A stretch of DNA of 14,306 nucleotides from Nanobdellota archaeon. Lineage in GTDB: Archaea; Nanobdellota; Nanobdellia; Woesearchaeales; JAHWHD01. This document shows positions 2,575 to 14,306 of the stretch, in pieces. The notes under the pieces were generated by a model that was not told where the DNA came from, did not search any database, and worked only from the letters and a program-made list of their open reading frames with translations. The stretch spans positions 1-14,306 of the forward strand of contig JAYENX010000027.1 of the NCBI GenBank assembly GCA_034722435.1, in the 5' to 3' direction. The position numbers and the translations under genes are program-made. Positions within the stretch are counted from its first letter, which is position 1; every line of letters begins with the position of its first letter.

Positions 2575-2596
2575 TGGGTAAATGTGTTATTTTGGT

Positions 2597-3292
2597 ATGG
2601 TTAAAAAAGCTTTAATTGAGTTAAGGAATGTTCATAAGATTTATCAGATGGGTGATGTTGAAGTAAATGCACTTAGTGGTGTCTCTCTTTCTATTAAAAA
2701 GGGTGAGTTTGTAGCTATAATGGGTCCATCTGGTTCAGGTAAAAGTACTATGGTAAATTCTATAGGTTGTTTAGATGTGCCTACATCTGGTTCAATATTT
2801 TTAGATGGGCATGATATTTCGCATATGACTGAATCGAGTCTTGCACAGGTAAGAGGGAAATTGATAGGGTTTGTATTTCAGCAGTTTAATCTTGTTCATA
2901 CATTGACTGCGTTAGAGAATGTGACGCTTCCAATGATATTTCAAGGCATTCCCAAAGAACGAAGGTTGAGAAGAGCTAAAGAGTTATTGGAGTTGATGGA
3001 TCTCGGGGATAGGATTCATCATAAGCCTAATGAGATGTCTGGCGGTCAACAGCAAAGAGTTGCTATTGCAAGAGCTCTTTCTAATGATCCTGATTTAATA
3101 TTGGCAGATGAGCCAACTGGAAATCTTGATTCGAAAACAGGTAAGAGTATAATGGAGTTTCTTAAGAAATTGCATAAACAGGAAGGAAAGACGATTGTTC
3201 TTGTAACGCATGATGAGTATCTTGCAAAAGCGGCAGAAAGGATTGAATATTTGAAAGATGGTGCCATAATACGTTCAAAAAAATTGAAATAG
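2597..3292 (+). CDS. ABC transporter ATP-binding protein, LolD/MacB/SalX family (231 aa)
   Basis: Walker A GPSGSGKST, Q-loop FVFQQFNL, signature MSGGQQQRVAIARAL, Walker B LILADEPTGNLD and H-loop VTHD. ATG 2597 is preferred over 2582 on TATA spacing. Confidence 0.97.
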   Translation: MVKKALIELRNVHKIYQMGDVEVNALSGVSLSIKKGEFVAIMGPSGSGKSTMVNSIGCLDVPTSGSIFLDGHDISHMTESSLAQVRGKLIGFVFQQFNLVHTLTALENVTLPMIFQGIPKERRLRRAKELLELMDLGDRIHHKPNEMSGGQQQRVAIARALSNDPDLILADEPTGNLDSKTGKSIMEFLKKLHKQEGKTIVLVTHDEYLAKAAERIEYLKDGAIIRSKKLK

Positions 3293-3365
3293 TAATAATT
3301 ATGATTTTGATAATATATAATCTCTATTAAATATGTTGAAATTAATTAAATATTATGATAAAGTA

Positions 3366-3373
3366 TTTAAATG
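3366..3373 (+). promoter_or_regulatory. TATA box (TTTAAATG)
   Basis: Lies 20 nt upstream of ATG 3394 and 14 nt upstream of ATG 3388. Confidence 0.45.
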
Positions 3374-3387
3374 AATAATAATTTAAA

Positions 3388-4749
3388 ATGGCTATGAAAA
3401 ATAAAGCAGGTGTGTTGATAGCAATATTTGTAATTTTAATATTTTCAGTAAGTGTAGTTGCTGCATCAAATTCGGGAACTACTTGGAATGTTGTTGATTA
3501 TGAGAATGTTCAATTAACTTTACTAAATCAGAATCCTGATCCTGCTGAACCTGGAGAGTTTGTTGAGCTCAGGTTTAACGTTGTAAATACTGGTTCAATA
3601 GTTTCAGATGCTAAATTTGAGATTGTTGAGGAGTTTCCTTTTACTGTTGTATCGGATGAATTGCTTGAAATTACTGAGTTCAAGGGTGGTGGAGATAATT
3701 CTTATGTGTTATATTATAAAATAAAAGTTGATGAAGATGCAGTTGAAGGTGATAATGATATTAGGATAAGGTTTGCTTTATCAGATGGTAGATGGGTTAC
3801 TGCAGGTCCTTTTACAGTAAGAGTGAAGACTCATGATGCTGTGTTAAGTGTTGAGGATATTTCACTTGAACCTGAAAAACTTTTACCTGGTAAAGAGGGT
3901 GAGTTGAAGTTTGAATTAAAAAATTGGGCTGATTCTTTATTGAAAGATATACATCTTAAGCTTGAGCTTGGTGGTACTCATTTTAGTCCAGTTGGAAGTA
4001 CAAATGAAAGAACAATAAGTAGCCTTAATTCAGGGGAAAGTATTTTTTTAACGTACAAACTTTTTGTCGATGGTGAGGCCTCTGCTAATATGTATCAGGT
4101 ACCTATAATGTTGACTTATTCTGATGAGACTGGTATAGTGTATTCAAAGAATGTAACAATTGGAGTTTTTGTTGATGGTGAACCCGAGTATTTTATGAAT
4201 TTGGAAGATTCTGATGTATATGAAACAGGTAAAGCGGGTAAGGTAGTTGTAAGTCTTTCAAATATTGGACCAAGTGAAATGAAATTTCTTACAATGGAGC
4301 TTAAAGAAAGCGATGATTATGAAGTGATATCTAATAATAAAGAATATTTAGGGAATTTAGAGAGTGATGATTTTGAAACTGCAGAATTTGAGATACATAT
4401 TAATAATGTGAAAAAAGAGATTTTGTTAAATCTTGAACTTATTTACAAAGATTCGTATAATACTGAGTTTGTCAAGGATGAATATTTATCTTTAAATATT
4501 TATTCTAGTAGAGATGCAGTTAAATTTGGTTTTGCTAAAGGGGTTAGTTTTTTACCTTCAATACTTTTATTTGTTGGAGTTGCAGTTTTAATATTCTTGT
4601 TTGGTTTTTGGATATATATGTTGATAGATATTTTTAAACATCCTTTGAGAAATCCTGATAAGCAATTACTTTGGATTTTTTTAATGGTTGTACTTCTCTT
4701 TGTAGGCGCGTTTTTGTATTACGTCTTTGCGAGAAGAAGGAGAAAATGA
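3388..4749 (+). CDS. COG1361 S-layer-domain family membrane-anchored protein with a C-terminal PLDc_N-like helical hairpin
   Basis: Signal peptide (KNK-AGVLIAIFVILIFSVSVVA); three repeated beta-sandwich units (PDPAEPGEFVELRFNVVNTG, PEKLLPGKEGELKFELKN, TGKAGKVVVSLSNIG); TM helix; then WIYMLIDIFK...K-x-LW...LL-x-VGAFLYYVFARRRRK. Its position between ABC ATPase and permeases is the usual archaeal context. The start may be 3394. Confidence 0.85.
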   Translation: MAMKNKAGVLIAIFVILIFSVSVVAASNSGTTWNVVDYENVQLTLLNQNPDPAEPGEFVELRFNVVNTGSIVSDAKFEIVEEFPFTVVSDELLEITEFKGGGDNSYVLYYKIKVDEDAVEGDNDIRIRFALSDGRWVTAGPFTVRVKTHDAVLSVEDISLEPEKLLPGKEGELKFELKNWADSLLKDIHLKLELGGTHFSPVGSTNERTISSLNSGESIFLTYKLFVDGEASANMYQVPIMLTYSDETGIVYSKNVTIGVFVDGEPEYFMNLEDSDVYETGKAGKVVVSLSNIGPSEMKFLTMELKESDDYEVISNNKEYLGNLESDDFETAEFEIHINNVKKEILLNLELIYKDSYNTEFVKDEYLSLNIYSSRDAVKFGFAKGVSFLPSILLFVGVAVLIFLFGFWIYMLIDIFKHPLRNPDKQLLWIFLMVVLLFVGAFLYYVFARRRRK

Positions 4750-5924
4750 TTTTAGATTATTTTAAAATTGCTATCAATAACTTGATTCATCGTAAGCTAA
4801 GAACGTGGCTTACGGTTATAGGTATAATTATAGGTATAGCTTCTATTATAGCTTTAGTTACTGCAACTCAAGGTTTGCAGAATTATGTTGAGTATCAATT
4901 TGAAAGGATGGGTACTAATCGGTTAATGATTTTACCTAATACTTTTGATCTTTCTGGTTCTTTTGAAGGTCTAATCGAAGACGATGTCGATGCTGTTGAA
5001 CGAGTTTCTGGCTATGAACGGGCTTCCTCAATAATTTTTGAGAGAGTAACTGTTGAGTATAAAAAGCAAGTTGAGCTTATAGGGTTAATGGCTTGGCCTG
5101 CTGATCATTCGGCAGAAATTTTTGGTGATTATGGTTTAGGATTTGTGGCTGGAAGAACTTTTGAAAAGGAGGGTTCTAATATTGTTTTAGGTTATAGGGT
5201 TGCAAAGGATCTTTTTGATAAAGAATTAAGAGTTAATAATAGAATAATAATTGAAGATAAAACTTTCAAAGTGGTGGGTGTACTTGAAGAGGTTGGTAAT
5301 CCTGAAGATGATAATATTGTTTATATGCCGCTTGAAACTGCAAGGAAATTGTTAAATAAACCTAATTCAGTTGCTTTTATTGATGTTAAAATTAAAGATG
5401 GGGTTGATATTAATCAGTTTGTAGGTAAGCTTAAAAGAGCTCTGGAAAGGATTAGAGATGAAAAAAGTTTTCAGATTTTAACATCTGAACAATTACTTGA
5501 ACAATTCGGGGATATTTTAGGAATTATACAAGCTGTACTTGTCGCCGTAGGGGGTATATCCTTATTAGTTGGTGCAGCAGGTATTGCAAATTCTATGTAT
5601 ACATCAGTTCTTCAAAGAAAGAAAGAAATAGGTATAATGAAATCAATTGGTGCCCGAAGAAAGGATATAGTTTTGCTTTTTTTGATTGAGTCAGGTCTTC
5701 TTGGTTTTGTTGGAGGAGTGATTGGAGTTATATTGGGTGCTTTAATGGCTAAGCTTGTAGGAGTTGCTGCTGCAGGGGCAGGATATGCTATATTTAGAAT
5801 TGAAATTACGGCAGCTATTGTAATATTTGGAATAATTTTTGCGACAGTTGTAGGGATGGTAGCTGGTGCGTTTCCTGCTAAGAATGCTGCTAAACTTAAA
5901 CCTGTGGATGCGTTAAGAGGTTGA
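4746..5924 (+). CDS. ABC transporter permease, MacB/FtsX (SalY) family (392 aa)
   Basis: The true start is ATG 4746 in an ATGA overlap with the upstream stop, not 4671. N-terminal N-L-x-x-R-K-L-R-T-x-LT-x-IGI-x-IG, large extracellular domain, GIANSMYTSVLQRKKEIGIMKSIGA, C-terminal PAKNAAKLKPVDALR. Confidence 0.95.
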   Translation: MILDYFKIAINNLIHRKLRTWLTVIGIIIGIASIIALVTATQGLQNYVEYQFERMGTNRLMILPNTFDLSGSFEGLIEDDVDAVERVSGYERASSIIFERVTVEYKKQVELIGLMAWPADHSAEIFGDYGLGFVAGRTFEKEGSNIVLGYRVAKDLFDKELRVNNRIIIEDKTFKVVGVLEEVGNPEDDNIVYMPLETARKLLNKPNSVAFIDVKIKDGVDINQFVGKLKRALERIRDEKSFQILTSEQLLEQFGDILGIIQAVLVAVGGISLLVGAAGIANSMYTSVLQRKKEIGIMKSIGARRKDIVLLFLIESGLLGFVGGVIGVILGALMAKLVGVAAAGAGYAIFRIEITAAIVIFGIIFATVVGMVAGAFPAKNAAKLKPVDALRG

Positions 5925-5928
5925 ATAT

Positions 5929-7110
5929 ATGGTGATGGATTTTGTTTTGTTAACATGGAAAAATTTGAAAAGTAGAAAGATGCGTAGCTGGTTAACTATT
6001 ATTGGGGTTATAATCGGTATAGCTGCGATTGTTTCTTTGTTTTTGATTTCTCAAGGTTTACAAAATGCTGTTGAACAACAATTTGAAAAGATGGGTGTTA
6101 AGAATATTAGAGTTGTCCCTGGAGGTTTAACTGGTCCGCCGACTGGCGCGTTAAGGATGGATATTGATATTAAAGATAATATTGAACGGGTGAAGGGTGT
6201 TGATTATGTTGATAGTGTTCTTATGGCGAATGCAGAGGTTGAGCTTGGTAAAGAAACTTTATTTTTTTCAATAATTAGTTATGATACTGATCTTGGTGAG
6301 GAAGGGTTTGTTGATATGGATATTGAACCATTAGAAGGTCGACTTTTACAGAAAGGTGATCGTGATGTTGTTCTTTTAGGTTGGACTATTGCCAAGGATG
6401 CTTTTGATAAAGAAATATTTGCAAAGAACAGTATTGTAGTGGAAGGAAGGAAAATGAAAATTGTAGGAGTGCTTGAAAAAACAGGTACAATTGATGAATC
6501 TGTTTATATGCCATTGGAGACTGCGCAGGATCTTTTAGGTATATATAATGAGATTAATGTTTTTGTGGTTAATATTAAGGATGGTATAGATATAACTAAT
6601 GTAGCTGAAGATATTAGGCATGAATTGGAGCGTGATTTGGATGAGAGTGAGTTCACAGTTTATACTCCTGAACAATTATTGAATCAAATAAATGATATAC
6701 TAGGTATTATTCAAATTGTTTTAGTTGGAATTGCTGCTGTTTCTTTGCTTGTTGGTGCTATAGGGATAATGAATGCAATGTTTACATCTGTACTTGAACG
6801 GACTCGAGAGATTGGGGTTATGAAAGCCATAGGTGCAAAGAATCGAGATATATTGTTGATATTTTTGATAGAATCTGGATTTATAGGTTTGTTCGGAGGC
6901 GTAATTGGTGCGATTATAGGTGTAGTTCTTGCAAAAGTTGTTCAGGTTGGGGCAGCTGCGTTTAATTTTTCTTTGCTACTTATAATTATAGACTGGAGAG
7001 TTATTGTTTTTTCTTTAGTGTTTGCTTTTTTTGTTGGGGTTATATCAGGTATAGTTCCCGCGTTAAAAGCTGCAAAGTTGCAACCTGTAGATGCTTTAAG
7101 ATACGAGTGA
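5929..7110 (+). CDS. Second ABC transporter permease, MacB/FtsX family (paralog of the upstream gene)
   Basis: KNLKSRKMRSWLTIIGVIIG, GIMNAMFTSVLERTREIGVMKAIGA, PALKAAKLQPVDALRYE. It begins 4 nt after the previous stop; ATG 5935 is an alternative start. Confidence 0.95.
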   Translation: MVMDFVLLTWKNLKSRKMRSWLTIIGVIIGIAAIVSLFLISQGLQNAVEQQFEKMGVKNIRVVPGGLTGPPTGALRMDIDIKDNIERVKGVDYVDSVLMANAEVELGKETLFFSIISYDTDLGEEGFVDMDIEPLEGRLLQKGDRDVVLLGWTIAKDAFDKEIFAKNSIVVEGRKMKIVGVLEKTGTIDESVYMPLETAQDLLGIYNEINVFVVNIKDGIDITNVAEDIRHELERDLDESEFTVYTPEQLLNQINDILGIIQIVLVGIAAVSLLVGAIGIMNAMFTSVLERTREIGVMKAIGAKNRDILLIFLIESGFIGLFGGVIGAIIGVVLAKVVQVGAAAFNFSLLLIIIDWRVIVFSLVFAFFVGVISGIVPALKAAKLQPVDALRYE

Positions 7111-7200
7111 AACGAGAATCTTGAAGCTAGGAATGAAATGACTATGCTTTGCGTTACGAATGAAATTATTATATTTTGAGATTTGAATTAAAAATTTCAG

Positions 7201-8130
7201 TTAAGAAACTATTTTTTTAATTTTTCTCCAAACATATCCTGCAGAGTCGCCGCCAACAGAATTGTTAGTTCTTGCTTGTTTCATTGTGGTGCAGAGTGAG
7301 TGGTAGTTGTGGTTAAGGTATTGAAAAAATGTTGAGACTTTGTTTAGGAAAGGTCTTATTGGTTTGATCATGGTAGATGTTTCAATAGGTTCTGAAGTTT
7401 TGATCTCTGGATGTTCAGTAAGATGTTTTTTGAATACAGGTAGAAGCATTTGTTTTAATTCATTGCCTGTTTTTTCTAATATTGATTTGGGTTTTGAGAA
7501 GTAATCTCCTCTGAAAGCTTCAGCTAAGTAGCTGACCTTAACATAATTTTCTATAACTTTGTCAAAAGTGAATACTTCTGGTGTTAAGTCGAGTGCTTTT
7601 TCTATGAAGCTGCCCCTTATGTGTTGGAGGCAGGCAGTGATGAAATCTTCACTTTCTGGATCAATATGTTGCGGATAAATTACTTTGGATAATCGTCCTG
7701 CGAGATAAAGGTTTGTTTGATTAAAACTTCTCCAGTGTACTTCTGCTAAACTTATTACACCTATTTTATAAGGTATTTTAATCTTTTTGGGTTCGTCTAA
7801 GTTTGCTTCAACAGGTTCTGTTTCAAGGTTGTAATAACTTATCGTGGTGTTGAGCGATTTTTGTTTTTCTTTTGTTGTCTCATCCCATTGTGCTTGCTCT
7901 CCTAGTGCTTCAAAAAAATTATCAGGATATTCATATATTAAAATAAAGTCGGGTTTGATACATTTTCGTGCATTAGGATTAAAGTGTTCTTTTGTAAGTG
8001 TGTCTAGTTTTGTATCAAGACCTTCTTGGAAAAATGAGCCATAGCCTATGATTGCTGCAAGATTGTTTCCAAATCTGGTCTTGAAATCTTGAACAAGTTG
8101 ATTATTTACATCTAGTAGTGTTTCTAGCAT
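7201..8130 (-). CDS. Tam41/Mmp37-like nucleotidyltransferase (putative CDP-diacylglycerol/CDP-archaeol synthase), 309 aa
   Basis: Colinear matches to remembered Tam41 motifs: IGYGSFFQEG (FAYGS..Q), PDFIL (IDFI), YYN (YFN), YKIGVIS (IKYGVIS), LYLAGRLSK (LYLAGRLxKPV), ALDLTPEVFT (ALLLLPExFT), VSYLAEAFR (LSYxGDxR), K-x-x-SI (KVxNI), and C-terminal GYVWRKIKK (YAxxKxxK). Confidence 0.78.
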   Translation of the reverse strand: MLETLLDVNNQLVQDFKTRFGNNLAAIIGYGSFFQEGLDTKLDTLTKEHFNPNARKCIKPDFILIYEYPDNFFEALGEQAQWDETTKEKQKSLNTTISYYNLETEPVEANLDEPKKIKIPYKIGVISLAEVHWRSFNQTNLYLAGRLSKVIYPQHIDPESEDFITACLQHIRGSFIEKALDLTPEVFTFDKVIENYVKVSYLAEAFRGDYFSKPKSILEKTGNELKQMLLPVFKKHLTEHPEIKTSEPIETSTMIKPIRPFLNKVSTFFQYLNHNYHSLCTTMKQARTNNSVGGDSAGYVWRKIKKIVS

Positions 8131-8152
8131 ATTTAAAGGGAATAAGCTGGAG

Positions 8153-8170
8153 TTTAATAATTTTTAAATA
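8153..8170. promoter_or_regulatory. Back-to-back TATA boxes of a compact divergent promoter
   Basis: Minus-strand TTATTAAA (8160-8153) is 22 nt before ATG 8130. Plus-strand TTTAAATA (8163-8170) is 23 nt before ATG 8194. Confidence 0.6.
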
Positions 8171-8193
8171 CTACAATGTATATCATGGATAAT

Positions 8194-8757
8194 ATGATAA
8201 AATTTGTGAGAAAGTTGTGGAGATTGCTTGGATTGGTATTTCCTGTGCTTTACTTTTTTTTAAGTAAAGCTTGGATGATTGGGATTTTAAGTTTTCTTGT
8301 AGCTTTATTTGTAATATTTGAGATTTATAGATATAAAAAAATTGAATTTAATAAGAAGTTTTTTAAGAAATATAAATTTATACTGAAACTTTCTGAGAAA
8401 AATCGAATGTTGAGTGCCACATGGTTTATGATGGCTTCTTTGATAGTTGTTGTGTTTTTTGAAAGGAACATTGCAATATTGGCAATATTTTTTTCTAACT
8501 TAGGTAATATCGCAGCAGTTTTTGCTGGTCGGTTGTATGGCAAGTTTAGTTTTGGACATAAAAATATAGAGGGTAGTATGGCGATGCTCGTAGTATGTGT
8601 AGTTATTGGGTTAGTTGCTTTTTTTAATGGATTTATTGATCTTGGTGTGGTTCTAGTAGGGGCATTTGCAGCTACAGTTGCTGAACTTTTTACTAATGGA
8701 CCGTATGATAATCTCGCAGTCGCCGTAATTGCTGGTTTAATTATGAGTTTGGTTTAA
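8194..8757 (+). CDS. Dolichol/phytol/diacylglycerol kinase-like membrane protein (COG0170, SEC59/Dgk1/VTE5 family), 187 aa
   Basis: RK motif at the N-terminus (VRKLW), multiple TM helices, G[N]xAAxxAGRLYGK, K-N-I-EGS, and E...DNL near the C-terminus. ATG 8194 is chosen on TATA spacing; 8176 and 8185 are alternatives. Confidence 0.85.
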   Translation: MIKFVRKLWRLLGLVFPVLYFFLSKAWMIGILSFLVALFVIFEIYRYKKIEFNKKFFKKYKFILKLSEKNRMLSATWFMMASLIVVVFFERNIAILAIFFSNLGNIAAVFAGRLYGKFSFGHKNIEGSMAMLVVCVVIGLVAFFNGFIDLGVVLVGAFAATVAELFTNGPYDNLAVAVIAGLIMSLV

Positions 8758-8758
8758 G

Positions 8759-9289
8759 ATGAAATTACTTTTACATGTTTGTTGTGGTCCGTGTGCTACT
8801 TCTTCTATTAAACGAGTTATTAAGGATTATGATGTTATTTGTTATTTTTATAATCCTTGTATTGAACCTGAAGAGGAGTATTTTAAACGGTTGAAGGAGT
8901 TTGTTAAGGTTTGTGAATTTCTAAAGGTAGATTATGTTATCGGTGATTATGATAATGATGAGTTTCGTAGTTTAGTAAAAGGTCGTGAAGGTGATGTTGA
9001 AGGTGGTGAACGGTGTCTTATTTGTTATGAGCAGAGATTAGGGAAGGTTGTAAAATATGCTAAAGAGAATGGGTTTGATTTGTTTACTACAACTCTTACA
9101 ATAAGTCCTCATAAAAGGTCTGTTGATATTTTTGAAATTGGAAAAAAAGTGAGTGAAAAATTTGAAGTTGAATTTTTAGAGATTGATTTTAAGAAAAAGG
9201 ATGGTTTTAATGAATCTGTTGAGATGAGTGAAGAAATGAATTTGTACAGGCAGAATTATTGCGGGTGCGAGTTTTCTAAAAATATTTAA
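8759..9289 (+). CDS. queH: Epoxyqueuosine reductase QueH (DUF208)
   Basis: LLLHVCCGPC, YFYNPxI-x-P-x-EEY-x-x-R, RCLICY-x-x-RL, FTTTLTISPHK, FKKKDGF and LYRQNYCGC-x-FS. It starts 1 nt after the kinase stop, so the two are probably cotranscribed. Confidence 0.95.
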   Translation: MKLLLHVCCGPCATSSIKRVIKDYDVICYFYNPCIEPEEEYFKRLKEFVKVCEFLKVDYVIGDYDNDEFRSLVKGREGDVEGGERCLICYEQRLGKVVKYAKENGFDLFTTTLTISPHKRSVDIFEIGKKVSEKFEVEFLEIDFKKKDGFNESVEMSEEMNLYRQNYCGCEFSKNI

Positions 9290-10344: not shown

Positions 10345-10845
10345 ATGACAGTTATAATAACTGACGAGTTTACATTGCGACCTTTGGCTGTGGTAGATTT
10401 GGAAGGGTTTTTTGAGACCATGCAGGATTCAGATACTAAAAAGGCTCTTAATGATGTTCCTGCTGATATTGAAGAAGCTGAAAATGAGATTCAGAAGATG
10501 TTGAAAAAGGTGTCTGATGGTTTTTCCGAGATATTTACTATCGAGGTTGGTGGTAAGTATGCGGGTAATGTGACTTTAGAGTATCAAGGATATAAACCTT
10601 GTGATGAAGGTAGATTGCACATTTTTATTCATCCTGATTTTCGTGGGAAGGGGTTAGCGACTAAAACTCTTAAGAAAGTTATTGAATATGGTTTTAATGA
10701 GAGGAAGTTTGTAAGAATATTTGCACAATGTAAGGCTTCAAATATAGCGATAATGAAATTGAATCAGAAACTTGGTTTGAAGGTTGTTAAAGAGCATATT
10801 AATGAGAATGGTGTTAAGAAAGTTCTTTGGGTAATTGATGCTTAG
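10345..10845 (+). CDS. GNAT family N-acetyltransferase, RimJ/RimL-like (166 aa)
   Basis: FTLRPL-x-x-x-D start, AGNVTL, acetyl-CoA motif A IFIHPDFRGKGLAT, and N-x-A-x-x-KL-x-x-KLGL. ATG 10345 is preferred to the upstream TTG 10333. Confidence 0.92.
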   Translation: MTVIITDEFTLRPLAVVDLEGFFETMQDSDTKKALNDVPADIEEAENEIQKMLKKVSDGFSEIFTIEVGGKYAGNVTLEYQGYKPCDEGRLHIFIHPDFRGKGLATKTLKKVIEYGFNERKFVRIFAQCKASNIAIMKLNQKLGLKVVKEHINENGVKKVLWVIDA

Positions 10846-11827
10846 ATAGTAACATAGCGTCTCCCAGACTGTAAAATCTATATTTGTTTTTTATTGCTTC
10901 TTTGTATGCTTGTTTTATTGTTTCTGTTCCTGCGAACGCTGAAACTAAAATAAGAAGTGATGATTTAGGTAGGTGGAAATTGGTGATTAGTGTTTGAGCT
11001 TTGGATTGGAATTTGTATCCTGGATATATGTATATGTCAGTGGTTGCTTTTTTTGGATAAGTTCTTTTATTTTTTGATGATGCTTCTAATGCTCTTAGGG
11101 CTGTAGTTCCTACAACAATGACTTTACCTTTACAATTGTTTATTATTTCTGCTGATTGTTTTGATATTTCAAAATGTTCGTTGTGCATTTTGTGGTCTTC
11201 TATGTTTTGTTCTGTGATTTCGAGGAAGGTTCCATAGTCAATGTGTAAAATGATTTTTGCAATTATTATTCCTTTATCTTTTATTTTTTTAAGAAGTTCT
11301 TCAGTAAAGTGTAGGGATGCTGTAGGTGCTGCTACACTTCCTTCAGTTTTTGCAAAGATTGGTTGGTATTCATTTTCTTCAAGGTATTCTCTTTGAATGT
11401 ATGGAGGGAATGGGAATTGTCCTTTCTTTTCTAGAATTGGTTCAATGTCTTGTTTGAACATTACTGTGAAAATGTCTTTGTCTAAATCAGTTATTGTTGC
11501 TTCCTGGTTTTCGATTATTATTTTTTGGCCTATTCTCGGGTTTCGTGTTTTGATTCTTGCTTCGTAAGTTAGTGGTTTGATTTTGTTTAGAAGGACTATC
11601 TCTAATGGTGCCCCTGATTCTTTTTTTCCTTTTAATTTGCAACGTTTTACTTTTGTTTCGTTTATTACAAGAACGTCGTCTTTGTTTAGATAGTTTAGAA
11701 TGTCGTAAAAGTGTTTATGTTCTATTTTTTCTTTTACAATCATAAGTTTAGAAGAGTCTTTAGGAAATACAGGTTTATGGGCTATAAGTTCTTTTGGTAG
11801 AATGTAATTGAATTCTTCGAGTTTCAT
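10814..11827 (-). CDS. queA: S-adenosylmethionine:tRNA ribosyltransferase-isomerase QueA (337 aa)
   Basis: F-N-Y-x-LP-x-ELIA-x-x-P, LVINETKV, PPYI-x-R, GSVAAPTAxLHFT, H-x-MH-x-E, VGTT-x-x-RALE, IYPGY-x-F, LITNFHLPKSSLL-x-LVSAF and YRFYSLGDAM. Start moved to ATG 11827 (MKLEEFNY) on family N-terminus and TATA spacing. Confidence 0.96.
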   Translation of the reverse strand: MKLEEFNYILPKELIAHKPVFPKDSSKLMIVKEKIEHKHFYDILNYLNKDDVLVINETKVKRCKLKGKKESGAPLEIVLLNKIKPLTYEARIKTRNPRIGQKIIIENQEATITDLDKDIFTVMFKQDIEPILEKKGQFPFPPYIQREYLEENEYQPIFAKTEGSVAAPTASLHFTEELLKKIKDKGIIIAKIILHIDYGTFLEITEQNIEDHKMHNEHFEISKQSAEIINNCKGKVIVVGTTALRALEASSKNKRTYPKKATTDIYIYPGYKFQSKAQTLITNFHLPKSSLLILVSAFAGTETIKQAYKEAIKNKYRFYSLGDAMLLSKHQLPKELS

Positions 11828-11849
11828 ACTTTTTGATTGGTTGTGGTTG

Positions 11850-11891
11850 TTTTTAAAGTTTAGGTTGTTGTTTCCCAAAAGCATTTAAATG
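11850..11891. promoter_or_regulatory. Divergent promoter: TTTAAAAA (minus, 11857-11850) and TTTAAATG (plus, 11884-11891)
   Basis: The boxes lie 22 nt before ATG 11827 (queA) and 20 nt before ATG 11912. Confidence 0.5.
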
Positions 11892-12592: not shown

Positions 12593-14306
12593 ATGAGGTG
12601 TGTAAAGTTATTTTTATGTATAGTTATATTTATTCTAGTTTCTAGTTTGTGTTATGCTGCGCAGGTTGAGGATTTAGTTTTTGATTCTTTAGATTCTGAT
12701 GGTGAAGTTGATGTTATTGTTGTGTTGAAAGATACTTCTGCAATTGAAACTGCAAATAAGTTTGTGGTTCAGGCTAAAGCAGAGAATAAGTTTAATGTTC
12801 TTGAGAATAAGAAAAAAGAGATTAAAAAAAATCAGGATAAAGTTTTGAATAAACATAAAAATTTTAAGGCTAAACATGTATATAGTACAATTAATGCTTT
12901 CTCTGGGAAAGTTGATAGTGCTACTTTAGCTGATTTACAGAATGATCCTGATGTTGAGAGAGTTCTTTTTGATAAATCTTTAAAGATTCAATTAACTGAT
13001 AGTGTTCCTTTAATCAGTGCTGATGATGTTTGGAAAAGGCAAATTAATGGGTTTAATATTACGGGTAAAGGAGTGGGTGTTTGCGTTATTGATAGTGGTA
13101 TTGATTATACACATGAAAGTTTAGGTGCTTGTAGTCCCACACAATTAACCCTTGGCGGGAATAATGAAAGTTATGTTTTAGAGTCAATTCACCCTTATGC
13201 AAATAGTTTTGATTATATGTGGAAAATAACTAAGCAAGGATATAATAATATTTCAGTTCATTTTCAAAATATTTCACTAGAGTATCCTGGTCAGGACGGG
13301 TATGATACTGCTGATAGGATTCTCATATATAATTCTAATAAAGAGCAAATTGCAGTTTATCATGGTGCGGCAGGAGGGCTTGCTGATATTTGGACTCCTT
13401 ATTCTGAAGGAGATACGATTTATATAAGATTAGTTACAGATGGTTCTGTAACTGACTATGGTTTTTACATAGATGAAACTAGGAATGGTACAACCGATAC
13501 ATCTTATGATTGGAGTGCTTGTAAAAAAGTAATTGGTGGTTGGGATTTTATCAATAATGATGGGTTGCCGATGGATGATAATGGTCACGGAACGCATGTA
13601 GCAGGAATTGTTGCAGCTAATGGTTCTGTGATTGGTGTAGCTCCTGAAGCTTCTTTGGTAGCTATTAAATCTATGGATTCTTCAGGGAGTGGACAGGATT
13701 CGAATATTGCTGCTGGTATTGATTGGTGTGTGAATAATTCTTTAGTTCATAATATTTCTGTAATAACTATGAGTATTGGAGGTGGTGGTCCTTATACTGA
13801 TTTAAATTGTCCAGTTAATGCTTTTTTAATTGAAGCAAGTTTGCAATCAGCTCATCAGGCAGGAATATTTGTTGCTATTGCTTCAGGTAATGATGGATTT
13901 TCAAATGGACTTTCTTATCCTGCTTGTTCTCCTTATGCAATTTCTGTAGGTGCTACAGATAAGAGCGATAATATGGCAAGTTATAGTAATACGGGTTCAA
14001 ACCTTGATTTGGTGGCTCCGGGTAGTAGTATAATCTCTACTAAGGTAGGAGGAGGTTCGTATTTAAATTCGGGTACTTCGATGGCGTGTCCGCATGTTGC
14101 TGGAGTCGCTGCTTTAATAATGCAAGAGCGAAATGAATTGGGTTTAATTGCATACGGTCATGATCGGCTTGAAGAGTTAATGAAAAATTCATCTTTAGTA
14201 AATGTAACTGATGTTTATGATTTTCCAAGAGTTGAAGCTTATCGTGCGTTAAATGATGCGTGTGATGGGGCGGACTCTAGTTATAGAAATACTACTTATT
14301 ATTATG
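12593..14306 (+). CDS. Secreted subtilisin-like serine protease (peptidase S8) with an I9-like propeptide and an internal CUB-like insertion; 3'-truncated by the window edge
   Basis: I translated it by hand: open from ATG 12593 to the end of the window (571 codons). Signal peptide MRCVKLFLCIVIFILVSSLCYA; propeptide VDVIVVLKD...YSTINAFSG...DPDVERV; catalytic D167 (VIDSGIDYTH, 13091), H332 (HGTHVAG, 13586), oxyanion N433 (ASGNDG, 13889) and S496 (GTSMACPHVAG, 14078). Confidence 0.96.
   Translation, partial: MRCVKLFLCIVIFILVSSLCYAAQVEDLVFDSLDSDGEVDVIVVLKDTSAIETANKFVVQAKAENKFNVLENKKKEIKKNQDKVLNKHKNFKAKHVYSTINAFSGKVDSATLADLQNDPDVERVLFDKSLKIQLTDSVPLISADDVWKRQINGFNITGKGVGVCVIDSGIDYTHESLGACSPTQLTLGGNNESYVLESIHPYANSFDYMWKITKQGYNNISVHFQNISLEYPGQDGYDTADRILIYNSNKEQIAVYHGAAGGLADIWTPYSEGDTIYIRLVTDGSVTDYGFYIDETRNGTTDTSYDWSACKKVIGGWDFINNDGLPMDDNGHGTHVAGIVAANGSVIGVAPEASLVAIKSMDSSGSGQDSNIAAGIDWCVNNSLVHNISVITMSIGGGGPYTDLNCPVNAFLIEASLQSAHQAGIFVAIASGNDGFSNGLSYPACSPYAISVGATDKSDNMASYSNTGSNLDLVAPGSSIISTKVGGGSYLNSGTSMACPHVAGVAALIMQERNELGLIAYGHDRLEELMKNSSLVNVTDVYDFPRVEAYRALNDACDGADSSYRNTTYYY

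Follow-up and report, generated by a model that had tools for sequence, protein, structure and literature searches.

A divergent Tam41/Mmp37-like protein of a Woesearchaeales archaeon as a candidate CDP-diacylglycerol synthase

A Tam41-type protein in an archaeal genome

The window analyzed here is the entire contig JAYENX010000027.1 (14,306 nt; C27 in our numbering) of a Nanobdellota archaeon from the order Woesearchaeales (assembly GCA_034722435.1, genome G000), and its minus strand encodes a 309-amino-acid protein, P0001, which is almost certainly a member of the Tam41/Mmp37 superfamily and probably functions as a cytidine diphosphate (CDP)-diacylglycerol synthase. CDP-activated lipids stand at the center of phospholipid head-group synthesis in each of life's three domains. 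According to reviews, the CDP-lipid step is performed in archaea and bacteria by the transmembrane proteins CarS and CdsA, and Tam41 is mitochondrial, with representatives in a few bacteria (PMC7018664, PMC11646218). An apparently intact Tam41-type enzyme, encoded together with GpsA and acyltransferases in a genome where neither CarS nor CdsA is found, is a testable candidate for the making or remodeling of membranes in reduced archaea, and a Tam41-type enzyme in DPANN bears directly on the “lipid divide” debate.

The original prediction, made from the sequence alone, supposed that such a protein had not been characterized in archaea. In the literature searched we find no characterization, and no paper linking Tam41 with DPANN, Woesearchaeota, or CDP-archaeol, but some relatives of P0001 have already been automatically named “phosphatidate cytidylyltransferase” by NCBI.

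The gene and its marked residues, in window coordinates, are as follows.

7201..8130, minus strand: gene of the Tam41/Mmp37-like cytidylyltransferase P0001, 309 amino acids, a stop-free open reading frame (ORF); from translation, Pfam, profiles, and an AlphaFold2 (AF2) model
8035..8043, minus strand: Y30-G31-S32, the G-S motif of nucleotidyltransferases (NTases), (nearly) invariant in the family and the same in canonical Tam41
7948..7950, minus strand: D61, the only acidic residue that is conserved in the NTase core, a candidate Mg2+ ligand; from alignments
7765..7767, minus strand: K122 of the (Y)K-x-G motif, present in at least 90% of the family and aligned with the invariant Lys of the canonical IKYG
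7684..7710, minus strand: L141-K149 (LYLAGRLSK), with R146 and K149 invariant in every group, aligned with YLAGRFQKP of Schizosaccharomyces pombe Tam41
7492..7530, minus strand: Y201-K213 block (SYLAE..R......K) with Y201, E204, R207, and K213; from profile alignments
7222..7236, minus strand: Y299-K303 (YVWRK) of the basic C-terminal helix, with Y299 and K303 kept in the divergent clade and in canonical Tam41

The ORF is intact, and the motifs named in the original prediction, YGS at 8043-8035, Asp61 at 7950-7948, and LYLAGRLSK at 7710-7684, lie exactly where it had placed them.

Assignment to the Tam41/Mmp37 superfamily

The sole Pfam match of P0001 is PF09139 (25.1 bits, E-value 1.4e-5), a partial match that covers only amino acids 118–245 and marginally passes the gathering cut-off of 24 bits; no Pfam match to NTP_transf_2 or related families is seen in P0001, and no NCBIfam model matches it. 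A single-sequence phmmer search of PDB yielded no Tam41, just a chance match to an ABC-F protein at E 0.21, and hence a profile search was required. When 1.84 billion representative proteins were scanned exhaustively with HMMER, only 39 relatives were identified at E ≤ 1e-3, so the family is small, and 33 of these relatives constitute the alignment and profile A1. The A1 profile finds S. pombe Tam41 (6ig4/6ig2) with E 1.2e-9 over chain positions 55–248, the alignment matching YGS, D61 (as (P)DFI), K122 (YK-G), YLAGRxxKP, SYLxE/D..R, and K213. Seventeen of the 33 A1 sequences, mostly clade members, match PF09139 individually at E ≤ 0.01 (best E 6.6e-25), and hhalign comparison of A1 with 19 canonical Tam41 sequences gives a probability of 99.7% (E 4.2e-27, 205 columns). 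The homology to Tam41/Mmp37 that had been proposed for this gene is thus borne out by the Pfam match and by both profile comparisons.

The fold agrees with this assignment. The AF2 model of P0001 built with alignment A1 (predicted local distance difference test, pLDDT, 92.1; predicted template modeling score, pTM, 0.89) has an NTase domain followed by a winged-helix-like one and, at residues 296–308 (YVWRKIKKIVS), a basic C-terminal helix with conserved Y299, R302, and K303, by which, judging from the model, the protein may associate with the membrane. The five best PDB matches found by Foldseek are all Tam41 (6ig4, 7ecd, 6ig2), with E-values from 3e-8 to 9e-6 and template modeling (TM) scores of 0.53–0.61, the next match having E 9e-4 and TM 0.2. 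VIA-align superimposes the model on 7ecd, a Firmicutes Tam41-CTP-Mg complex (CTP, cytidine triphosphate), with Z 20.1 over 243 residues spanning residues 1–289, and on yeast Tam41 with Z 16.1 (6ig4, residues 2–270) and 15.7. The best non-Tam41 chains are aminoglycoside NTases, with Z 8.4 for the N-terminal NTase domain only, whereas both domains of P0001 align with Tam41, beyond the NTase core. A preference for a generic Pol-beta NTase, which the original prediction had named as the competing outcome, is therefore not seen, either in structure (Z 20.1 to Tam41 vs. 8.4) or in Pfam, where the match is PF09139.

P0001 shares with mitochondrial Tam41/TAMM41 (6ig2, 6ig4) the NTase and winged-helix-like architecture, the soluble character, and the basic C-terminal helix, and with S. 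pombe Tam41 in particular, the YGS motif, the single Asp, the K / R-x-x-K / Y-x-x-D(E)-x-R / K set, and the C-terminal Y...K. It differs from the S. pombe protein in having only about 19–22% identity to it, no mitochondrial presequence, and Glu for Asp at position 204; moreover, its host is archaeal, with no cardiolipin pathway identified. The best structural match is the bacterial 7ecd (root-mean-square deviation 3.9 Å), likewise a prokaryotic protein lacking a presequence, despite an identity of just 13–16%. According to PMC11646218, this Firmicutes Tam41 (Kimura et al., 2022) was shown to make CDP-diacylglycerol. CarS and CdsA catalyze the step proposed here for P0001, the transfer of cytidine monophosphate (CMP) from CTP to a phosphatidate-type lipid (PMC7018664), but are polytopic membrane proteins of an unrelated fold.

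Conservation of the active site

Active-site residues were compared in a merged alignment of three groups, that is, the divergent clade comprising P0001, canonical Tam41 rows from Woesearchaeota and metagenomes, and eukaryote Tam41. Y30, G31, S32, D61, K122, G124, R146, K149, Y201, K213, Y299, and K303 are identical across all three groups, D61 being also invariant in all 33 relatives of A1. E204 of the divergent clade is Asp in canonical Tam41, and R207 corresponds to a canonical Arg one position out of register. The NTase core of the family has only one conserved acidic residue and no DxD/E triad. This pattern, a single Asp and a retained basic set, fits the published description of Tam41, in which one of the three NTase acidic residues is kept, basic residues hold CTP (PMC11646218), and the CTP site lies between the NTase and winged-helix domains (PMC7018664). 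Judging by these residues, the catalytic core of P0001 appears to be intact.

The divergent clade also has conserved residues of its own, Y196, N289, and R302, in addition to the register-shifted R207. On the other hand, the WHxxN...(H)YS motif, together with the Glu that precedes the last Lys (H50, N53, Y61, and E182 in the numbering of the canonical protein P0048), is invariant in 19 of 19 canonical Tam41 sequences but has no conserved counterpart in the divergent clade, including P0001. This distinguishes P0001 from mitochondrial Tam41 and marks its clade as a Tam41 variant.

Phylogeny

In a quick IQ-TREE reconstruction from 51 sequences, unrooted and with thin bacterial sampling, a branch with 99% support in the Shimodaira–Hasegawa-like approximate likelihood ratio test (SH-aLRT) separates all 29 divergent rows from canonical, including mitochondrial, Tam41; two further rows, of which one is from Patescibacteria, have positions intermediate between the divergent and canonical sets. 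The Patescibacteria-type Tam41 rows P0033 and P0039 group on the canonical side, apart from the P0001 clade, and this clade is apparently restricted to Woesearchaeota.

PF09139 also identifies three canonical Tam41 genes (263–295 bits, compared to 25 bits for P0001) in genomes from the same phylum and order as G000, namely G083 (L021:6675-7658), G377 (L026), and G110 (L027), all three, like G000, having no CarS. These Woesearchaeota-like proteins, which NCBI automatically names “phosphatidate cytidylyltransferase”, are full-length and 37–40% identical to animal and fungal Tam41, and the canonical Woesearchaeota and metagenome rows, P0048 among them, nest among the eukaryote rows of the tree. 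Their presence may be explained by a eukaryote-to-archaeon transfer or by deep shared ancestry. One archaeal order contains two distinct Tam41 lineages, the divergent clade and the eukaryote-nested set, which matters for accounts of the origin of the mitochondrial enzyme. The expectation that an archaeal branch would bear on this origin stands in so far as the separate clade is well supported, but since the tree is unrooted and bacterial sampling is thin, it allows no claim as to which way a transfer went or in what order the groups arose.

The host genome and its lipid genes

The window is the whole of one contig in a 1.30-Mb genome assembled in 60 contigs, 94.5% complete and 2% contaminated. 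Its small-subunit ribosomal RNA scores 1395 bits with the archaeal model vs. 1057 bits with the bacterial one, and the tetranucleotide profile of the contig correlates with that of the rest of the genome at r = 0.989, mid-rank among the contigs. The closest homolog of P0001 (51% identity, syntenic) and other named relatives are labeled “Candidatus Woesearchaeota archaeon”, and other family members reside on long contigs beside genes for Orc1/Cdc6, TFIIS/RPB9-like proteins, RNA polymerase subunit L, and TrmB. Although the contig also bears bacterial-type genes (QueA, QueH, MacB/FtsX, and subtilase), these data agree with the archaeal host assumed in the original prediction and argue against a bacterial contig.

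A check of the 94.5%-complete genome for carS and cdsA, suggested along with that prediction, found neither gene; GGGPS and the UbiA-type prenyltransferase (DGGGPS) were not found in it either. The Tam41-like protein is the only candidate in G000 for CDP activation. A cluster of bacterial-type lipid genes is located on another contig.

G000:C46:18110-22861 (L038): four adjacent genes encoding an acyltransferase (PlsB-like domain), GpsA, a FabF-like ketoacyl synthase, and a two-domain phospholipase D (PLD)-family protein

The best, weak NCBIfam matches of this acyltransferase are PlsB-type glycerol-3-phosphate acyltransferases, and GpsA, the NAD(P)H-dependent glycerol-3-phosphate (G3P) dehydrogenase, scores 214 bits. 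A second acyltransferase, AGPAT-like (PlsC-like), is encoded on contig C28. With GpsA and two acyltransferases present, a route to sn-G3P phosphatidate is plausibly encoded. GpsA in Woesearchaeota and PlsC in DPANN generally were reported earlier in a study that did not address the CDP-activation step (PMC6431249). We also observe in G000 AglB/STT3 and an EgsA-like homolog of glycerol-1-phosphate (G1P) dehydrogenase (L050:1879-3222 on C20; 196 bits vs. the equivalog cut-off of 413).

The FabF-like ketoacyl synthase carries an N-terminal extension of about 150 amino acids, and its cluster also holds a 172-amino-acid ORF; the EgsA-like homolog, in the same genome as GpsA, has an N-terminal extension of about 175 amino acids.

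Distribution in the phylum and co-occurrence with lipid genes

We scanned a phylum sample of 401 genomes with the A1 profile, PF09139, and CarS. The A1 profile finds the family in 12 genomes (about 2–3%), six of the matches being strong (G000, G050, G058, G170, G195, and G322). CarS is present in 160 of the 401 genomes; this tally includes the unpublished G243, G244, G360, and G396, and the unpublished G322 and G333 are among the counted carriers, with no conclusion drawn on them alone. A complementary distribution of the two enzymes was considered and is ruled out, as four of the six strong carriers (G050, G170, G195, and G322) have both CarS and the Tam41-like gene; thus the Tam41-like enzyme is not a simple substitute for CarS.

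For the analysis of co-occurrence, 12 carriers were compared with 39 non-carriers. GpsA is present in 6/12 carriers vs. 5/39 non-carriers, and GpsA or a PlsC-like gene, in eight of the nine divergent-type carriers, each from a different family, compared to 15 of the 39 non-carriers (Fisher p 0.009), an enrichment that is only indicative, as kin are not independent. Every GpsA-positive genome of this 51-genome set has CarS, a Tam41-family gene, or both. All PF01148 matches in the set are cross-hits on CarS genes, and hence no true CdsA is seen in it. Archaeal-type CDP-alcohol transferases occur in most of the other carriers.

Genomic neighborhoods

P0001 is transcribed divergently from the gene P0004, the two loci being as follows.

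8131..8193, no strand: short AT-rich spacer between the divergent genes, holding two TTTAAA boxes, at 8132-8137 and at 8163-8168; from sequence reading
8194..8757, plus strand: P0004, polytopic membrane protein of about 187 amino acids, a putative member of the CTP_transf_1 superfamily (diacylglycerol/polyprenol-kinase-like); from ESM Atlas and homologs

The ORF of P0004 opens at 8176 and its homologs begin at the Met at 8194, so that the spacer is 45–63 nt long, and the second TTTAAA box lies 26–31 nt upstream of the ATG at 8194. By their sequence and position, the boxes may serve as promoter elements. The ESM Atlas places P0004 close to “diacylglycerol/polyprenol kinase” and “phosphatidate cytidylyltransferase family” clusters (feature score 0.94–0.95, structure TM 0.88–0.93), and its homolog in genome G038 (E 1e-29) reaches the PF01148 cut-off. 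An AF2 model of P0004, built from five sequences, has pLDDT 59, too poor for a fold search. Although P0004 could be a CdsA or CarS in disguise, this is not favored, since P0004 itself has no Pfam or PDB match and its sequence lacks PGHGG..DR.D, the signature of CdsA (PMC7018664).

The pairing of P0001 with P0004 recurs in the P0002 lineage, but within approximately 6 kb of other family members no homolog of P0004 was found. Relatives without the pairing and the lack of co-occurrence described below rule out an obligate module of the Tam41-like and kinase-like proteins.

Three independent lineages, the first represented by the window and the P0002 lineage, the second by G050, and the third by G284, have glycerophospholipid genes beside the Tam41-like gene; this supports a phospholipid role, though the cases are too few for statistics. 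In G050 the divergent neighbor of the Tam41-like gene is a PlsC-like acyltransferase. G284 (L015:602-2670, C12) has a distant member of the family (hhalign 97.8%, E 1e-12) that is separated by 39 nt from its head-to-head neighbor, a fusion of CDP-alcohol phosphatidyltransferase with a HAD domain of the mitochondrial-PGP-phosphatase-like/YqeG type (PGP, phosphatidylglycerophosphate); the best named NCBIfam match of the transferase half is archaetidylinositol-phosphate synthase (35.6 bits, cut-off 180). Genes for GDPD and inositol monophosphatase occur within 3 kb of the family member at the P0009 locus, in the P0013 locus a cis-prenyltransferase gene lies 3 kb away, and the remaining loci have unrelated neighbors.

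The gene order in G284 echoes the mitochondrial Tam41-Pgs1-Gep4 sequence. In G050, a genome classified as archaeal, the Tam41-like gene is followed directly downstream by a sigma-70-like ORF with regions 1.2, 2, and 4 (L016:5856-6686; C8); this ORF could be an acquired bacterial-type regulator or a sign of a mis-binned contig. Within an otherwise conserved block, the Tam41-like gene is present in the window (within 7111-8193) and absent from L051 and the P0044 contig, where about 85–100 nt separate the second MacB/FtsX gene from the P0004-like gene, suggesting a recent insertion or deletion.

Proposed function

From the observed homology, fold, active-site conservation, gene content, and neighborhoods we infer the CTP/phosphatidate chemistry and the lipid identity. 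P0001 would be a Tam41-type nucleotidyltransferase, catalytically competent and peripheral to the membrane, binding CTP-Mg2+ between its NTase and winged-helix-like domains and moving CMP from CTP onto the phosphate of a phosphatidate-type lipid, with the release of pyrophosphate and formation of a CDP-activated lipid. The most likely substrate would be sn-G3P-based phosphatidic acid produced via GpsA and the PlsB-like and PlsC-like acyltransferases; alternatively, scavenged diacylglycerol could be phosphorylated by the neighboring CTP-dependent kinase-like P0004. P0001 would thereby fill the CDP-diacylglycerol synthase step where neither CdsA nor CarS is found. Synthesis of CDP-diacylglycerol is probable, though far from assured, and is favored over that of CDP-archaeol because GpsA, two acyltransferases, and the ketoacyl synthase are present in G000, and GGGPS and the UbiA-type prenyltransferase are not found. 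Thus, of the route to CDP-archaeol or CDP-diacylglycerol bypassing CarS, as originally predicted, the CDP-diacylglycerol variant is favored by gene content, but simple substitution for CarS does not hold, given the carriers that have both.

A number of observations weigh against this assignment. No CDP-alcohol phosphatidyltransferase was found in G000, and the two-domain PLD-family protein of C46 is nearest to Nuc and MitoPLD/Zucchini, scoring only 21 bits with the Cls model, so no consumer of CDP-diacylglycerol is identified in the genome; as a candidate consumer, the PLD-family protein was rejected, since its sequence favors Nuc and MitoPLD/Zucchini over cardiolipin or phosphatidylserine synthases. 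PlsY was not found in G000, the scores behind the acyltransferase assignments fall far short of the NCBIfam equivalog cut-offs, and the EgsA-like G1P dehydrogenase means that the genome is not purely “bacterial-type”; further, as G000 is a metagenome-assembled genome in 60 contigs, every gene absence in it is provisional. In the family as a whole, CarS coexists with the Tam41-like gene in most of the strong carriers, and the long, well-supported branch separating the P0001 clade from canonical Tam41, combined with the missing WHxxN...YS motif and Glu, suggests that substrate specificity may differ. The link to P0004 is also weakened. Two syntenic lineages (L051 and the P0044 contig) have the order MacB-MacB-P0004-like-QueH with no Tam41-like gene in between, and P0004-like genes do not co-occur with the Tam41-like family (3/12 carriers vs. 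11/39 non-carriers), hence the adjacency of P0001 and P0004 is lineage-specific.

The same gene content can be read in favor of the archaeal product. A DPANN genome without GGGPS, UbiA-type prenyltransferase, and CarS is what would be expected of a lipid scavenger, G000 has an EgsA-like gene, P0004 could re-phosphorylate scavenged archaeol, and most other carriers have archaeal-type CDP-alcohol transferases, such as the fusion in G284. P0001 might then be a soluble, CarS-independent CDP-archaeol synthase acting on host-scavenged archaetidic acid (an unsaturated or saturated diether G1P lipid) for head-group remodeling. We consider this unlikely, as a second CDP-archaeol synthase would be redundant in the four strong carriers that have CarS, GpsA and PlsC-like genes, the makers of G3P ester lipids, are overrepresented in the carriers, the adjacent gene in G050 encodes an acyltransferase, and in G000 itself no CDP-alcohol transferase was found. 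The long branch, the loss of the canonical motif and E182, the clade-specific Y196, R207, N289, and R302, and the coexistence with CarS would also fit a shift to another phosphomonoester acceptor (for example, the phosphate of dolichol or of a polyprenol, lysophosphatidate, or a phospho-sugar) or to another nucleotide in place of CTP, the more so as the putative superfamily of P0004 includes dolichol kinases, G000 has AglB/STT3, and the P0013 locus has a nearby cis-prenyltransferase. However, all residues shared with canonical Tam41 around the nucleotide site are kept, the neighbors in G050 and G284 are enzymes of glycerophospholipid metabolism rather than of glycosylation, and no CDP-polyprenol pathway is known, which makes such a shift quite improbable.

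Finally, the marginal Pfam match limited to the middle of the protein, the failure of the single-sequence PDB search to find Tam41, and the ESM Atlas, where the nearest clusters are generic NTP_transf_2 (146–154 shared features, with a poor Atlas model of pLDDT 0.49), could indicate a generic Pol-beta-type NTase, similar to MNT antitoxins or aminoglycoside NTases and having no lipid role, or a dead structural protein. This is very hard to reconcile with profile and structure matches specific to Tam41 (E 1e-9, E 4e-27, Z 20.1 vs. 8.4) that extend over both domains, and with the absence of a HEPN or toxin partner adjacent to P0001; the conserved catalytic residues argue against a dead enzyme.

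If P0001 is a CDP-diacylglycerol synthase, one can tentatively suggest a wider scheme, possible rather than probable, in which this woesearchaeote and its scattered relatives build or remodel G3P ester phospholipids without the archaeal core-lipid pathway, relying for CDP activation on an ancient archaea-specific sister clade of Tam41 instead of a membrane enzyme of the CdsA/CarS type. If true, an archaeon would stand on the “wrong” side of the lipid divide with a liponucleotide synthase so far known from mitochondria and a few bacteria, and the P0001 clade would offer a candidate deep branch from which the origin of Tam41 could be rooted.

Other genes of the window

At lower window coordinates than P0001 and P0004, a same-strand run at 2582-7110 on the plus strand encodes an ABC ATPase, a 453-amino-acid protein with CARDB and a C-terminal PLDc_N membrane motif, and two MacB/FtsX permeases; the ATPase ORF ends 96 nt before the next one, and the CARDB ORF overlaps that of the first permease. 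The ABC ATPase/CARDB/MacB run is kept beside the Tam41-like gene in the P0002 lineage. At higher coordinates we observe, in this archaeal genome, intact queuosine genes of bacterial type, QueH (8759-9289, plus strand, 211 bits) and QueA (10814-11884, minus strand, 370 bits), and at least three related lineages show synteny of the block MacB-MacB-(Tam41-like)-P0004-like-QueH...QueA. The last gene of the window (12593-14305, plus strand) encodes a subtilase (Peptidase_S8 with an I9 propeptide) with a CUB match at amino acids 200–293 inside the catalytic domain, its ORF running off the end of the contig.

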